NCBI GenBank assembly: GCA_947628905.1
Contig: CANRBQ010000002.1
Span: 625 to 64,624 of the forward strand
DNA length: 64,000 bases
Direction: 5' to 3'
Source of the DNA: an uncultured Bacilli bacterium
GTDB lineage: Bacteria > Bacillota_I > Bacilli_A > RF39 > UBA660
This document shows positions 24,005 through 64,000 of the stretch, one piece after another. A program made the position numbers and the translations under genes. Numbering within the stretch: position 1 is the first letter of the stretch; every line of letters begins with the position of its first letter. A model generated the notes under the pieces. That model did no database searches and was not told the origin of the DNA. It was given only the letters and a program-made list of their open reading frames with translations.

Positions 24005-24046
24005 AATATATTTACAAAATAAAAAATAAATGTTAAAATTTAAAAT

Positions 24047-24146
24047 GTAGAACATTTAAGAACAAATGCCTACAAAAAAACTATTTTCTATGGACATTTA
24101 TCTTTATATCAATACTGATTAAGATAAGTGTCATTTTTATTGCTTT
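24047..24146 (+). ncRNA. candidate antisense sRNA (module A)
   Basis: Promoter TTTACA(24011-16), 17 nt, TAAAAT(24034-39) with upstream TG. Terminator stem GACATTTATCTT (24093-104) / AAGATAAGTGTC (24121-132) followed by ATTTTTATT. Confidence 0.5.
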
Positions 24147-24182
24147 AAACAATATTATCACGAATAAAATTGCTTTTATCAT
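24081..24182 (-). CDS. candidate 33-aa hydrophobic/basic peptide (type I toxin-like)
   Basis: AGGAGGT, 8 nt, ATG. Hand translation: MIKAILFVIILFKAIKMTLILISIDIKINVHRK. Coding status unproven. Confidence 0.35.
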   Translation of the reverse strand: MIKAILFVIILFKAIKMTLILISIDIKINVHRK

Positions 24183-24317
24183 GACCTAGTACCTCCTATT
24201 CATAAACCCCATTAACAGTAAGGAAGAACAAATGAAAAGGAAAAATACAAGGTAGGCACTCGTCTTAAATGTTCAATTCTATTCTAAAACTAAAACAAGA
24301 ATTTGTCAAAAAAAGCG

Positions 24318-24334
24318 TTCGACAAAATTCGACA
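24318..24334. repeat. direct repeat TTCGACA-N3-TTCGACA, inside a 25-nt block identical to 63077-63101
   Basis: AAAAAGCGTTCGACAAAATTCGACA is identical in both modules, while the adjacent promoters differ. Confidence 0.6.
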
Positions 24335-24340
24335 ACTCCC

Positions 24341-24793
24341 CTATTTTAAATACTTAGGACTATCTACTCTTCCTAATAAGTAATCAGCACTAATTTTATA
24401 TTTCTTACATATGTCATATAAAAATGAAGTTGATATCAAATATATTCCTTTTTCATAATTAGATAAAAGAGATCTATTAGTGTGCAGATATTCTGCAAGT
24501 TTTTGTTGTGTAATATTATTTTCTTTTCTAAAATTCTTAATTCTCAATCCTACATTAATTTTATCTATGCTAGTATTAAATTTACTACCAGTACTATCAT
24601 TAAAACCAAATAAATAATCAATAGAAACATCAAAATAATTTGCTAAAGAAATTAGATGTTTAACGGGAATAGTTTGTGTTTCCTTTTCATATCTTCCATA
24701 CAAACTTTTATCAATTTGCAAATATTTTGCTAGTTCTACTTGGGATATTCCTATCCTTTCACGTAAAAGTTGCAACTGAATACCATAATTCAT
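24341..24793 (-). CDS. XRE-family transcriptional regulator with two HTH domains
   Basis: Two Cro/C1-type HTH units (ISQVELAKYLQIDKSLYGRYE and ITQQKLAEYLHTNRSLLSNYE). Start moved to ATG 24793, after GGTGG. Confidence 0.85.
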   Translation of the reverse strand: MNYGIQLQLLRERIGISQVELAKYLQIDKSLYGRYEKETQTIPVKHLISLANYFDVSIDYLFGFNDSTGSKFNTSIDKINVGLRIKNFRKENNITQQKLAEYLHTNRSLLSNYEKGIYLISTSFLYDICKKYKISADYLLGRVDSPKYLK

Positions 24794-24869
24794 AATTATT
24801 ACCACCGCATACATTTTCTCATTAAAAGAAATTAAATAGTTATAAAGTGGACAAATGCCAACATTTTTC

Positions 24870-24898
24870 TTGACAATTTACACTTGCTAGATTATAAT
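24870..24898 (+). promoter_or_regulatory. sigma-A-type promoter of surface-protein paralog 1
   Basis: TTGACA, 17 nt, TATAAT. Confidence 0.65.
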
Positions 24899-24909
24899 TT
24901 TAGTATAAG

Positions 24910-24923
24910 TTAGAAATTTCTAA
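24910..24923. promoter_or_regulatory. perfect 14-bp palindrome TTAGAAATTTCTAA (operator candidate)
   Basis: Lies just downstream of the -10. An identical copy is at 63470-63483. Confidence 0.5.
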
Positions 24924-24960
24924 TATAATTGAGTAAATCAATTAGAAAGAAGAGAAAGGT

Positions 24961-26274
24961 ATGAGGATAGAGAAGTTAAGTAAAGGAAGAAAAAAGAAAG
25001 TAATATTAGCTATAACAATATTAGTATTGTTAATAGGAATAGTATATATAACAAATAGTAAAGCTAAATATCATGTAACAAGTAATATACAAATAGTTAA
25101 AGGTAAAGTAAGTTATAGTCCATATGATTTTCAAATTATGGCAATGTATAAAGAAGAAGATGGAGAAGATATAAAAATAGAAGAAATGCCTGATTATAGA
25201 TATGCAATAGATGAAGAAAGAAGCTATTGCATGAGAGGAGATTCAAAAATAACAGGAGTATTAAAAACCATAAATGGATATCATACAATATCTAAATTGC
25301 ATACTAATGATAAATGTTATCTATATTTTGAAAATAATTCTTGTGGAAGTGCCTGTCAAAAAATACTTAATAATAAAACGATTCTTACTAGGACAGATTT
25401 TAATACTATTTTTGAAGGTTCTACAACTAATAAAATATATCAAAGCACAGATGATGATGGAAATACATATTATTTCGCCGGCTCCCCAACAGATAATTTT
25501 CTAAAATTTGCTGGATTTTACTGGAGAATTATCCGAATAAATGGCAATGGTTCCATTCGTATAATATATGATGGTACATCTATTCATAATAATAATAATA
25601 GTGCTGCAGATAGAGAGATTTTTACAAGTGCATTTAATGCCAGTGAAAATGATAATATGTACGTTGGATATATGTACAAAGCAAATGAAGTTCACGGACT
25701 TTCAGTTTCTAGCAAAATAAAAACAGATTTGGATTCATGGTATAACAGTAAATTATCATCATATTTAGATATGTTTGAAATTAATGCTGGCTTTTGTAAT
25801 GATAGAAAAAATTCAACAAATCCTTCAACACCATGGGGAAGCGAAACAGATGATGGAGGTACAGGAACAACAGATACATATTATGGAGAGTACCTTCGTA
25901 ATAATAAACAACAGCCTACTTTTAAATGTGCAGACGAAAGAGACCTGTTTACAACAAAGGACTCACAAATTGGTAATAATGCATTAACCTACCCTATAGG
26001 CTTAATAACCATGGATGAAGTAGTATATGCAGGCGGCTTTGCTAATAATACTAATAGTTTTTATTTACGCACCGGTAAAGATTTTTGGACAATGACTCCT
26101 AAATCATTTAATAATACTAATAAAATTGCCTATGTTAGTATAGTTTCTGCAGATGGAGGAATAAGAGGATATGTAGAAACAAAATATCCACGAGGAGTAC
26201 GCCCTGTTTTAAATTTAAAATCTAATATCAATTTAACTGGAACAGGCACAGTAAGTGATCCATATTCAGCATAA
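24961..26274 (+). CDS. secreted/surface protein, paralog 1 of a three-member family
   Basis: N-terminal signal-anchor (KKKVILAITILVLLIGIVYI). Shared family motifs: SYCMRG, KCYLYF, YWRIIRINGNGSIRIIY, YVGYMY, GFCNDR, PTFKC, GNNALTYPIGLITMDEVVYAGGF, FWTMTP, GVRPVLNLK. Confidence 0.8.
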   Translation: MRIEKLSKGRKKKVILAITILVLLIGIVYITNSKAKYHVTSNIQIVKGKVSYSPYDFQIMAMYKEEDGEDIKIEEMPDYRYAIDEERSYCMRGDSKITGVLKTINGYHTISKLHTNDKCYLYFENNSCGSACQKILNNKTILTRTDFNTIFEGSTTNKIYQSTDDDGNTYYFAGSPTDNFLKFAGFYWRIIRINGNGSIRIIYDGTSIHNNNNSAADREIFTSAFNASENDNMYVGYMYKANEVHGLSVSSKIKTDLDSWYNSKLSSYLDMFEINAGFCNDRKNSTNPSTPWGSETDDGGTGTTDTYYGEYLRNNKQQPTFKCADERDLFTTKDSQIGNNALTYPIGLITMDEVVYAGGFANNTNSFYLRTGKDFWTMTPKSFNNTNKIAYVSIVSADGGIRGYVETKYPRGVRPVLNLKSNINLTGTGTVSDPYSA

Positions 26275-61217: not shown

Positions 61218-62780
61218 ATGAAAATAATTAATGCCAAAGAAGTAGCCAGTCTTATTAAAAATAATGCTACTGTAGCTATATCTGGAAGTGGTGGTTCAGG
61301 ATCCCCAGAAAACCTTTTAAAATCTCTGATGGATAGTTATAATACTAATAAACAACCTAAAAACATAACAGTCGTTACCGGAATATCACCAGGTAATTTA
61401 ACTAAAGATTATGTTGGCATGAATATGTTAAGTGCTGATGGTTTAGTTGGAAAAGCTATATGTGCTCATCTAGGTATGGGAAAATTATTTGGCGAAAAAG
61501 TAGGTAAAAATATTTTTCCAGCCTTTGCCCTACCATTAGGAGTTCTAAATCATCTATTGCGAGCAATCGCCGGCCATGAACCAGGAATTATTACTCATAT
61601 TGGTTTAGATACTTTTGCAGATCCTAGACAAGAAGGATGCTGTGCTAATGATTTAGCTAAAAATGAAGAACCAATTGTCGAATTAATTAAAATTGCTAAA
61701 GAAGATTATTTATTCTATAAATCTTTTCCTATAAATGTTGCTCTTATTAAAGCTACTTATGCCGATGAACTAGGAAATATTAGCTTTGAACATGAAGCTG
61801 TTTTAGGAGAACAATTTAATATGGCCGCGGCCACCCATAATTCTGGAGGCATAGTTATAGTTGAAGTAAAAGAAATAAAACCTGCTGGCTCTCTTCGTGC
61901 TAAAGATGTTCTAATTCATAGTAAACTAGTTGATTATGTTGTAATCGGTAAACCAGATACATCATTAGGTGATTATAATTTACCAATTTATCATCCCGAG
62001 TATACAGGTGATAAAAAAATAAAACTAGAAAAATTACCTATAAAAGAATTAGATGAAAGAAAAATATGTGCTAGAAGAGCCGCCATGGAAATAAAAAAAG
62101 GCTATGCTATTAATTTAGGTGTTGGCATGCCTGATATGGTTGCAAATGTAGCCGCAGAAGAAAATATATCACAAGAAATATCATTATCAATAGAATGTGG
62201 CCCAATGGGTGGAGTACCTGTTGGGGGTATCGCGTTTGGTGCTAGTAGAAATCCTGATAGTATAATTCCAACTGCTGAAAATTTTGATTTATATAATGGA
62301 GGTTTTCTTGATATGGCAATATTAGGACTTGCCGAGGTTGATCAAGAAGGAAATGTTAATGTTTCAAAATTTGGCTCTCGAATAACAGGACCAGGAGGCT
62401 TTATCAATATTACCCAAAGTACTAAAAGAATTATATTTATGGGAACATTTACAGCTTCAAATTTAAAAGAAAGTATTATAGATGAAAAATTAATAATAAA
62501 TAATGAAGGAGAAAAAATAAAATTTGTTAATAAAGTAGAACAAATAACCTTCAGTGGTAAAAATGCTTTAAAAAACAATTTAGAAATTATGTATGTAACA
62601 GAAAGAGCAGTATTTAAATTAACTAAAGGTGGCTTAGAATTAATTGAAATAGCCCCAGGAATTGATCTTCAACAAGATATATTAAATAAAATGGAATTTA
62701 AACCAATAATATCATCTAAACTAAAACTAATGGATAAAAGAATATTTAAAGATGAAAAAATGAATTTAACTATTGAATAA
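61218..62780 (+). CDS. acyl-CoA:acetate / propionate CoA-transferase family protein
   Basis: 520 aa. ATVAISGSGGSGSPE and the central ECGPMGGVP-type motifs fit family I CoA-transferases (YdiF/Pct-like). Confidence 0.8.
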   Translation: MKIINAKEVASLIKNNATVAISGSGGSGSPENLLKSLMDSYNTNKQPKNITVVTGISPGNLTKDYVGMNMLSADGLVGKAICAHLGMGKLFGEKVGKNIFPAFALPLGVLNHLLRAIAGHEPGIITHIGLDTFADPRQEGCCANDLAKNEEPIVELIKIAKEDYLFYKSFPINVALIKATYADELGNISFEHEAVLGEQFNMAAATHNSGGIVIVEVKEIKPAGSLRAKDVLIHSKLVDYVVIGKPDTSLGDYNLPIYHPEYTGDKKIKLEKLPIKELDERKICARRAAMEIKKGYAINLGVGMPDMVANVAAEENISQEISLSIECGPMGGVPVGGIAFGASRNPDSIIPTAENFDLYNGGFLDMAILGLAEVDQEGNVNVSKFGSRITGPGGFINITQSTKRIIFMGTFTASNLKESIIDEKLIINNEGEKIKFVNKVEQITFSGKNALKNNLEIMYVTERAVFKLTKGGLELIEIAPGIDLQQDILNKMEFKPIISSKLKLMDKRIFKDEKMNLTIE

Positions 62781-62807
62781 AAAACAAAATTATATTACAA
62801 TTAAATT

Positions 62808-62912
62808 GTAGAACATTTAAGGATTAAATGCCTACAAAATTATTTAAGTTTCGAGACACTTATCTTAATATTAAGTATCAACTTAATAGATAGAAGTGTC
62901 TTTTTTGTTTTT
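62808..62912 (+). ncRNA. candidate antisense sRNA (module B)
   Basis: Promoter TTGAAT(62773-78), 17 nt, TACAAT(62796-801). Terminator AGACACTT(62854-61)/AAGTGTCT(62894-901) followed by TTTTTGTTTTT. Confidence 0.5.
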
Positions 62913-62947
62913 AAAAACAAATTTAATGGTAAAATTACTTTTATCAT
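62840..62947 (-). CDS. candidate 35-aa basic peptide (module B)
   Basis: AGGAGG, 9 nt, ATG. Hand translation: MIKVILPLNLFLKTKKTLLSIKLILNIKISVSKLK. Less hydrophobic than the module A peptide, so coding status is doubtful. Confidence 0.25.
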   Translation of the reverse strand: MIKVILPLNLFLKTKKTLLSIKLILNIKISVSKLK

Positions 62948-63084
62948 AACTCTGTACCTCCTTAAACATAACCCCCTGATAAATCAGTAAAGGTAAATGG
63001 AAAGGACATATAAAGTAGGCACTTCACCTTAAATGTTCAAGTTATTATTATAAGTATAAAAAAAGAATATGTCCAGAAAAAGCG

Positions 63085-63101
63085 TTCGACAAAATTCGAC
63101 A
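63085..63101. repeat. direct repeat TTCGACA-N3-TTCGACA (copy 2)
   Basis: The 25-nt block is identical to 24310-24334. Confidence 0.6.
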
Positions 63102-63142: not shown

Positions 63143-63340
63143 CTATTCCTCTTTCTTCATATTCTCTATTGCATAATAACAAGCAGAACAAACAAAACCA
63201 TTAAAACTATATTCTTTTTTAGTTTTGCCTTTATTAGCTTTCTTAACTATTTCATTAATGCTATTAAACAATTCTTCATCAAATCTAATGCTTTTGATAA
63301 CATTACTATTTTTTGATTTTTTAAATTCAAATTCTTTCAT
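63143..63340 (-). CDS. small ribbon-helix-helix (CopG/Arc-like) protein
   Basis: 65 aa. VIKSIRFDEELFNSINEIVKK fits the beta-strand plus helix pattern of RHH repressors. It is divergent from surface-protein paralog 3. Confidence 0.5.
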   Translation of the reverse strand: MKEFEFKKSKNSNVIKSIRFDEELFNSINEIVKKANKGKTKKEYSFNGFVCSACYYAIENMKKEE

Positions 63341-63429
63341 ACATAACTCCTATTCCAATTATTTTTATAACACAAAAAAGCAATTATTAATATAACATAA
63401 AAAGTAACACAAAAAAGGTTACAAAAATA

Positions 63430-63458
63430 TTGACTTTTAAGATTATCAATTATATAAT
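63430..63458 (+). promoter_or_regulatory. sigma-A-type promoter of surface-protein paralog 3
   Basis: TTGACT, 17 nt, TATAAT, followed by the palindrome TTAGAAATTTCTAA at 63470-63483. Confidence 0.65.
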
Positions 63459-63519
63459 TTTAGTATAAGTTAGAAATTTCTAATATAATTGAGTAATCAA
63501 TTAGAAAGAAGAGAAAGGT

Positions 63520-64000
63520 ATGAGGATAGAGAAGTTAAGTAAAGGAAGAAAAAAGAAAATAGTATTAGTTATAACAATATTAGTATTGTTAATAGGAATA
63601 ATATATATAACAAATAGTAGAGCTAAATATCATGTAACAAGTAATATTCAAATAGTTAAAGGTAAAGTAAATTATAGTTTAGCAGATTTAAATGTTGTAG
63701 CTTTAAAAATACAAGAATCAGAGAATAGTGAAACGTACACTCCAACAGATGAAGTACCAACTGGAAACTATGAAGTTAATACGCAAAATAGCTATTGTAC
63801 ACTTCCAGGAGATAATATAGAACATAAAGATATTCCAATGGAATATAAAAATGGAAAGGTATATATAGGAATAAATCAAAAAGGAACAAAATGTTATGTT
63901 TTTTTAGATATAAGTAAACCATCAGAAAAAACATTAGCAAAACTGCATTTATCAAAAGCAGGAGATTTACCATCAGAGATAAGTACATATGCATGTGATA
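63520..64000 (+). CDS. secreted/surface protein, paralog 3 (5' partial; runs off the window; not in ORF track)
   Basis: Hand translation MRIEKLSKGRKKKIVLVITILVLLIGIIYITNSRAKYHVTSNIQIVKGKV... is nearly identical to the first ~50 aa of paralog 1 and then diverges. The frame is open to position 64000. Confidence 0.8.
   Translation, partial: MRIEKLSKGRKKKIVLVITILVLLIGIIYITNSRAKYHVTSNIQIVKGKVNYSLADLNVVALKIQESENSETYTPTDEVPTGNYEVNTQNSYCTLPGDNIEHKDIPMEYKNGKVYIGINQKGTKCYVFLDISKPSEKTLAKLHLSKAGDLPSEISTYACD

Follow-up and report, generated by a model that had tools for sequence, protein, structure and literature searches.

Within a 64,000-nt stretch of contig CANRBQ010000002.1 (GenBank assembly GCA_947628905.1), which derives from an uncultured bacterium of the Bacilli (RF39; UBA660) and is hereafter called the window, a ~330-bp unannotated unit, module B, lies directly behind a CoA-transferase gene. 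Module B is a real and conserved module of two RNA genes, a short mRNA for a 35-residue peptide on the minus strand and a convergent antisense small RNA (sRNA) on the plus strand, and seems to represent a new family within a known type I-like class. We regard it as probably a type I toxin-antitoxin-like locus of the Gram-positive 3'-overlap class, with the toxicity of the peptide presumed. Sequence and comparison between copies demonstrate both genes, their helices, the reading frame and a direct-repeat box at the mRNA promoter, and we infer the transcripts, the route of mRNA decay and a toxic action of the peptide. Module B adds an unannotated type I toxin-antitoxin-like family to a lineage known from metagenome bins only, with five copies in one 1.2-Mb genome alongside dozens of variable surface-protein cassettes.

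A first-pass annotation, made from the letters of the window, had described module B as a diverged paralog of another module in the window, module A, with the same convergent architecture. Direct reading found every element of module B where that annotation had placed it (Table 1), the two modules align at 74-79% identity, and the blocks conserved in this alignment are the ones it had named. The sRNA start motif has six matches in the window at ≤2 mismatches, as compared with 1.4 expected, and none of 100 shuffled sequences reached six. Promoter-like matches in this AT-rich stretch were not above chance (8 found, 7.2 expected), and a terminator scan of module B gave no match, because the stem has internal loops. 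Since promoter matches in a single stretch are uninformative, the case rests on folding statistics and comparison and, for the promoters, on how far the 34-36 scored copies conserve them. The hexamers of the mRNA promoter are conserved in 34 family copies; the sRNA promoter has an extended -10 (TGn) in 34 of 36 copies, at a fixed distance to the G of GTAG; and both promoters stand at conserved, fixed distances from the inverted-repeat arms of the unit.

Both RNAs of module B fold far better than shuffled sequences, at -67.4 kcal/mol (z = -6.4) for the minus strand and -24.4 kcal/mol (z = -4.5) for the plus strand; the RNAs of module A showed a like folding behavior on both strands. A structure of 54 pairs was then scored in an alignment of 41 copies, written in mRNA sense (alignment A2). 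Paired cells amount to 93.7%, as against 37-48% when the partners are slid by one to three columns. Compensatory changes, by which the first-pass annotation had proposed to judge the helices, are frequent: 74 cells carry double-sided changes, as compared with 26±4 in shuffles (0/500 reach this number), and both-sided changes occur at 16 pairs, a number reached by five of 500 shuffles. The most prominent element is an end-to-end helix of 22 bp that connects the first 24 and the last 25 nucleotides of the mRNA, with a probability of about 1.0 in every copy folded singly; its 5' arm covaries, for example at column 12/283 (GC 27, AU 13, GU 1). The Shine-Dalgarno (SD) sequence is paired to an upstream UUUCC/UCCUU, with a mean probability of 0.96 across singly folded copies. 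A hairpin over the start codon has compensatory pairs at 118/142, 121/138 and 125/134, and the terminator stem shows double-sided changes in seven of its 12 pairs. In a distant paralog on contig 14 of the same genome, an 11-bp outer helix is swapped for UAAGCGUUAGG/CCUAACGCUUA while the overall plan is kept (z = -8.2), so that a whole helix is compensated.

A G·U pair in one strand is a C·A mismatch in the other, so the balance between the two marks the strand on which a helix is selected. Counted in mRNA sense, the end-to-end helix has 111 G·U and 8 C·A, the anti-SD/SD helix 98 and 3, and the start hairpin 27 and 7; these three helices therefore belong to the minus-strand RNA. The terminator, with 62 C·A and 23 G·U, is therefore kept mainly for the plus-strand RNA. 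Given these opposite wobble balances, both strands make selected RNAs. Together with the conserved sRNA promoter, the strand test is the best available substitute for expression data.

The first-pass annotation had left the coding interpretation of the open reading frame (ORF) in doubt, and in this respect the comparison decides for coding. Read from the aligned ATG, frame 0 runs through 31-42 codons without a stop in 40 of 41 copies, and the other frames soon meet stop codons. Between the ATG and the hairpin end lie 84 to 114 nt, with 12 different lengths among the copies, and in 38 of 41 copies this length is a multiple of three; the lengths of the untranslated regions (UTRs) show no such bias. 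The three exceptions are defects, namely a 1-nt deletion, a C-terminal frameshift and a deleted stem arm; in one further copy (L069) the start codon is lost (ATG to ATA). The open frame 0 and the frame-preserving indels therefore lead us to take the ORF as translated. More generally, two functional genes that overlap can be established without a transcriptome, from wobble counts by strand and from indels that preserve the frame.

The peptide itself evolves fast, and that of copy B, which is cationic (net charge +8, GRAVY, the grand average of hydropathy, 0.88), is atypical for a membrane toxin. AlphaFold2 gives a single helix (pLDDT, the predicted local distance difference test score, 83), and the KKTL and KISV motifs are simply what the two terminator-stem arms encode. 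Apolar runs of 15-16 residues occur in some subfamilies. A profile search with the peptide among 1.84 billion proteins returned only four clusters, all of them of the module's own family. In relatives from the Hadza gut, which are without the double box, the arms and the terminator core are kept and the ORF between them is an unrelated, strongly hydrophobic one of 32-33 residues with a 17-residue membrane core (MSNKTFIIRFFNRIIITLLIIAVVYIFILLQGK), a classic membrane-type peptide in a retained RNA frame. The RNA frame (arms and terminator) is hence kept more strictly than the peptide and hosts two unrelated peptides. If confirmed, such a two-peptide RNA frame, together with a shared box, would offer a handle on the joint regulation and evolution of these modules.

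Type I systems are described by a short mRNA, SD/anti-SD pairing, a 5'-3' interaction and, in Gram-positive families, an antisense RNA on the 3' side that overlaps the ORF (PMC8594479). The mRNA of module B, at ~231 nt and with 35 codons, lies within the usual range of 150-400 nt and an SD-led ORF of fewer than ~60 codons; a convergent antisense RNA gene lies over its 3' part, on gene-level evidence; and the cis elements that block premature translation (anti-SD and 5'-3' interaction) are present both in the folds and in the covariation. This layout fits the descriptors, and bsrG/SR4 and its relatives in Bacillus subtilis (bsrE/SR5, txpA/RatA, yonT/SR6) are the closest known systems. These are likewise convergent, with a ~100-nt antisense RNA over the 3' end and part of the ORF, and the loop of the sRNA terminator faces a complementary loop of the mRNA in both cases (PMC3834814; PMC8594479). 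In both, the SD lies in a double-stranded region. There is, however, no sequence or profile similarity between the two; the ends of the module mRNA are joined by a 22-bp helix, the mRNA promoter bears a shared regulatory box and peptide B has too little hydrophobicity to span a membrane. Moreover, binding of SR4 extends the SD helix (PMC3834814), whereas modelled binding of the module sRNA leaves SD pairing unchanged.

With hok/sok of the Escherichia coli plasmid R1 and AapA1/IsoA1 of Helicobacter pylori, the module shares the long-distance 5'-3' closure of an inert full-length mRNA (PMC8594479). Their antisense RNAs, however, act on the 5' region and sit entirely inside the mRNA span, whereas that of the module covers the 3' arm; and 3' trimming activates translation there, whereas deletion of the 3' arm in silico leaves the SD of the module masked. 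Fst/RNA II (par of the Enterococcus faecalis plasmid pAD1) resembles the module in its convergent low-GC Gram-positive transcripts, shared terminator and peptide of ~33 residues, but its key pairing is at 5' direct repeats outside the overlap and its antisense RNA does not overlap the ORF (PMC8594479). In the module, by contrast, the arms are inverted repeats, so that the two RNAs share their 5' sequence instead of being complementary there, and the overlap includes the ORF; the peptides are not similar. No profile in Rfam, Pfam or NCBIfam assigns the module to a known type I family (Fst, TxpA/BsrG, SprA1, RatA, SR4 and others).

In the mechanism that we propose, the minus strand would yield a ~231-nt mRNA for a cationic helical peptide of 35 residues, kept inert and nuclease-resistant by three devices: the 22-bp end helix (the clamp), UCCUU over the SD, and the hairpin over the AUG. 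The plus strand would yield an antisense RNA of ~105 nt, complementary throughout to the final ~105 nt of the mRNA (3' arm and 3' UTR together with the 3'-terminal two thirds of the ORF), which may invade the 3' arm of the mRNA, open the clamp and free the 5' end. The predicted energies are -31 kcal/mol for the clamp, -45 kcal/mol for the sRNA 5' hairpin sequence on the 3' arm and -97 kcal/mol for the gain of the whole duplex, and in the modelled sRNA-bound state pairing of the mRNA 5' end falls from 1.0 to 0.43. The long sRNA/mRNA duplex could then expose the mRNA to ribonucleases (III, J/Y), which would degrade it ahead of any peptide synthesis. Transcription of the mRNA would be set by a putative regulator acting at the direct-repeat box upstream of the -35.

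Several observations weigh against a toxin-antitoxin-like locus working in this manner. Peptide B is not a small, hydrophobic, membrane-spanning peptide: it has no transmembrane stretch, its longest run free of KRDEHNQ being five residues. It has no match in Pfam or NCBIfam, and in Rfam the module has no match at gathering score, the three matches at E ≤ 10 being weak, unrelated and far below gathering. The ORF has a pN/pS (ratio of non-synonymous to synonymous differences) of 0.68 in frame 0 and of 0.52 and 0.78 in the other frames; as frame 0 is no lower than the wrong frames, we dropped pN/pS as an uninformative test of coding. Set beside the invariant arms, the same figure shows the RNA elements to be constrained more than the peptide, in support of the first-pass annotation, which had placed selection on them at least as much as on the peptide. 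A C·A mismatch in the clamp is uncompensated in six copies. Finally, deletion of the 3' arm in silico changes SD pairing only from 0.96 to 0.95, and with the last 100 nt occupied by the sRNA the SD is still paired at 0.94. Neither change, then, releases the SD; translation has no predicted route, and the end-to-end helix was rejected in silico as a translational lock. Since the SD stays masked in both models, we propose instead that the clamp would protect the mRNA ends and that the sRNA would act by decay, not by SD occlusion.

Table 1. Elements of module B, neighboring features and related loci (window positions unless a locus is named)
Feature	Positions	Strand	Basis or remark
sRNA promoter TTGAAT-17-TACAAT	62773..62801	+	overlaps CoA-transferase stop codon; read in sequence
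mRNA 3' arm = sRNA 5' hairpin, GUAGAACAUUUAAGGAUUAAAUGCCUAC	62808..62835	both	folds of both RNAs
Start motif GTAGAACATTTAAG...AAATGCCTAC, in full GTAGAACATTTAAGGATTAAATGCCTAC	62808-62835	+	
Antisense sRNA, ~105 nt	62808..62912	+	predicted ends; fold and duplex energies
sRNA terminator hairpin	62853..62902	+	within ORF on opposite strand; then UUUUUUGUUUUU; U-tract 62903-62912
ORF, 35 codons, MIKVILPLNLFLKTKKTLLSIKLILNIKISVSKLK	62840..62947	-	ORF list
Start-codon hairpin	62928..62958	-	folding, covariation, G·U/C·A counts
SD AGGAGG, 9 nt 5' of ATG	62957..62962	-	conserved in alignment A2
Inner 5'-UTR hairpin ACCUU..CUGA-loop-UCAG GGGGU	62971..62994	-	minimum-energy fold; CAGGGGGUU block kept in family
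Anti-SD UCCUU	63002..63006	-	pairs AAGGA of SD in minimum-energy fold
5' arm of end-to-end helix, GAACAUUUAAGGUGAAGUGCCUAC	63015..63038	-	pairing, covariation, G·U/C·A counts
Peptide mRNA, ~231 nt	62808..63040	-	5' end inferred from -10, 3' end from 3'-arm end
mRNA promoter TGGACA-17-TATAAT	63047..63075	-	11/12 match to consensus
Direct-repeat box TGTCGAAttttGTCGAACG	63083..63101	-	8 nt upstream of mRNA -35; read in sequence
RHH-like small regulator, 65 aa	63143..63340	-	stands in XRE-gene place of other copies
Surface-protein paralog, 5' part	63520..64000	+	divergent from RHH-like regulator
Paralog module A	24030..24340	-	behind dual-HTH XRE gene 24341-24814
Second box site in window	24310-24334	-	further box sites: L151-L180
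Copy D, two pieces	L002:142-311 and L005:1517-1623		own contigs 54 and 2; ~1.2 kb past window end
Hadza-gut relatives	L106:151-404, L112:7647-7905, L117:68-326		

The family numbers 43 distinct full copies, spread over about 12 species that all belong to a single genus of uncultured gut Bacilli with low GC content; it is carried by 12 of the 44 species of the genus, with ≤8 full copies per genome, and is absent from 24 genomes of other genera in the class. The sequence of the conserved 3' arm is found at 57 sites in 12 genomes of the genus (1-12 per genome), and matches to it were limited to metagenome-assembled genomes of uncultured Bacilli from the rabbit ('Lapin') and the Hadza human gut; collections of plasmid, phage, IMG/VR and JGI metagenome contigs gave no match to the module. 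Five modules are present in the source assembly (1.24 Mb, 25% G+C, 81 contigs); besides A and B, these are a module on contig 8, a split copy D and the distant contig-14 paralog (L009:1291-1563, minus strand). The latter has the same box and plan and encodes the peptide MKQVQKKVMTLWIKIKTLVISINVYFQKK; relatives that share its 5' arm are present in other species (L043, L049, L082, L153, L180). Copy D is a fourth, B-type module whose ORF is split by an ISL3-like insertion sequence (terminal repeat GGTTCTTAAACATTAAGGAG, 8-bp duplication CTTTTCTC), an insertion that also breaks the assembly. On contig 17 of the same genome (L007:600-674), a further XRE gene is followed by a box and -35 joined directly to an sRNA-type promoter, apparently a scar from which the whole transcribed unit has been deleted.

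The 57 sRNA-side arms in the genus exceed the 43 mRNA 5' arms. Several of the surplus arms are internal and represent complete sRNA genes that have lost the toxin half wholly or in part, and no internal toxin-only remnant was seen among the arm sites of the genus. This pattern of loss may be read as a sign of toxin-antitoxin-like dynamics; the excess itself is a point of lower confidence, as some of the 'orphans' are contig-end artefacts.

As for genomic context, 20 of the 31 copies with enough flanking sequence lie 68-116 nt behind a same-strand dual-HTH XRE gene, and past this gene at least 14 of the 20 have a divergent surface-protein gene. At module B the place of the usual XRE regulator is taken by a 65-aa RHH-like protein, whose sole match is a weak one to YlcI/YnfO (E = 2.4e-4, below cut-off); counting it, 21 of the 31 copies stand behind a cassette regulator, and the remaining ten have neither an XRE nor an RHH-like regulator. 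The genome itself has ~29 dual-HTH XRE paralogs and more than 55 anchored surface-protein paralogs, and a box or module follows only three of the ~29 XRE genes. Because most copies are near regulators and few XRE genes are near modules, the association is far above chance in one direction only. The functional link with surface-protein genes that the first-pass annotation had suggested is thus borne out in position for 21 of 31 copies but not for the other ten, and it is best described as a positional association. A stabilizing role for the surface-protein cassettes is possible. The two cassettes in the window (24341-26274 and 63143-64000) have surface genes whose promoter/leader and first ~220 nt are 84-89% identical (24870-25158 as compared with 63430-63717). 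Behind the CoA-transferase gene, a module is present in this genome and in G006 and G014 only, and not in eleven other species; synteny there is too variable for an empty-site comparison, and neither a target duplication nor a clean empty site was found.

With the architecture unchanged, the peptide could also be a small cationic protein with no toxic action but a physiological role, for instance in the envelope or in control of the neighboring surface cassette, at a level set by the antisense RNA and the regulator of the box. The missing membrane-spanning segment of peptide B and of several subfamilies speaks for such a role, as do the 21 of 31 copies directly behind a cassette regulator and the use of the same box for an sRNA that faces a Prli42-like gene, Prli42 being no toxin. 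Nevertheless we consider it unlikely, for the peptide sequence changes rapidly and relatives carry another ORF altogether, copy number is variable and spread patchy (12 of 44 species, 1-12 arm sites per genome), and there are pseudogenes, a copy disrupted by an insertion sequence and a deletion scar. Fast evolution, patchiness and decay fit dispensable selfish loci better than a housekeeping function.

It is less probable still that the unit is primarily a 3'-end device, in which the plus-strand hairpins terminate and stabilize the transcript of the CoA-transferase or surface gene, the minus-strand structure ends that of the regulator, and the ORF is secondary. The sRNA promoter does abut the stop codon of the upstream gene (that of the CoA-transferase for module B), the first terminator to follow is the hairpin at 62853-62902, and no terminator lies between the XRE or RHH-like gene and the module. 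Against a device of this sort stand the conservation of the two promoters, each with a fixed spacing to the arms, that of the reading frame, and the ten of 31 copies without a cassette gene upstream, and in other species ordinary terminators stand behind the same CoA-transferase gene. That the 24-28-bp inverted repeats are DNA signals, whether as the termini of a miniature mobile element or as a pair of operators, one at each start site, we hold to be very improbable: the repeats flank a multi-copy unit often found at contig ends, and arm covariation by itself cannot separate DNA identity from RNA pairing, but conservation runs ~60 bp past one repeat and ~40 bp past the other, spanning the box and the promoters, the invariant G·U positions pair on the minus strand only, the repeats have nothing in common with the helices of the SD, start codon and terminator, and a miniature inverted-repeat element was rejected, with conservation extending past both repeats and no target duplication or clean empty site found behind the CoA-transferase gene.

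A type I toxin-antitoxin-like locus, then, remains the reading that we favor, and its mRNA promoter connects module B with other loci. What appears to be new here is that the box directly upstream of the mRNA -35, a direct repeat with a 10-bp period, is genus-wide and common to other small-RNA and small-peptide genes. The pattern GTCGRA-N4-GTCGAAC occurs at ~230 sites in 40 of the 44 genomes of the genus, as compared with a single match for a reversed-pattern control, and it always stands at one set distance from a -35; about ten copies are present in this genome. Four kinds of genes are driven by the box: the module family, a second subfamily, other toxin-like ORFs (e.g. MSDTKLLLIIIIMLVSIIRDDHKKKR) and an sRNA of ~80 nt. 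The shared box connects several such loci. Tentatively, and with more doubt than confidence, we suggest that it defines a genus-wide regulon, in which one regulator would co-ordinately switch unrelated small-peptide/antisense-RNA modules and sRNAs; if so, the toxin-antitoxin-like loci, with their preference for the ends of hypervariable surface-protein cassettes, would be part of a programmed response and not independent selfish elements.

The layout of the box resembles that of the CtsR operator (heptad-N3-heptad). CtsR was nonetheless rejected as the binding protein, PF05848 being absent from 44 of 44 genomes of the genus while control genomes were positive. An OmpR-type response regulator would be our guess. 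The box-driven sRNA of ~80 nt is found on contig 1 of the same genome (L010:1296-1538); with its closing helix (GTAGTTCTGAAT), this sRNA is conserved across many of the genus's species, and it converges on a 30-aa Prli42-like ORF (MNKKARKIFAWCMLLAMVASVVATIVSYML), which has a weak match to the stressosome miniprotein Prli42 (NF033880, E = 1.3e-5, below cut-off).

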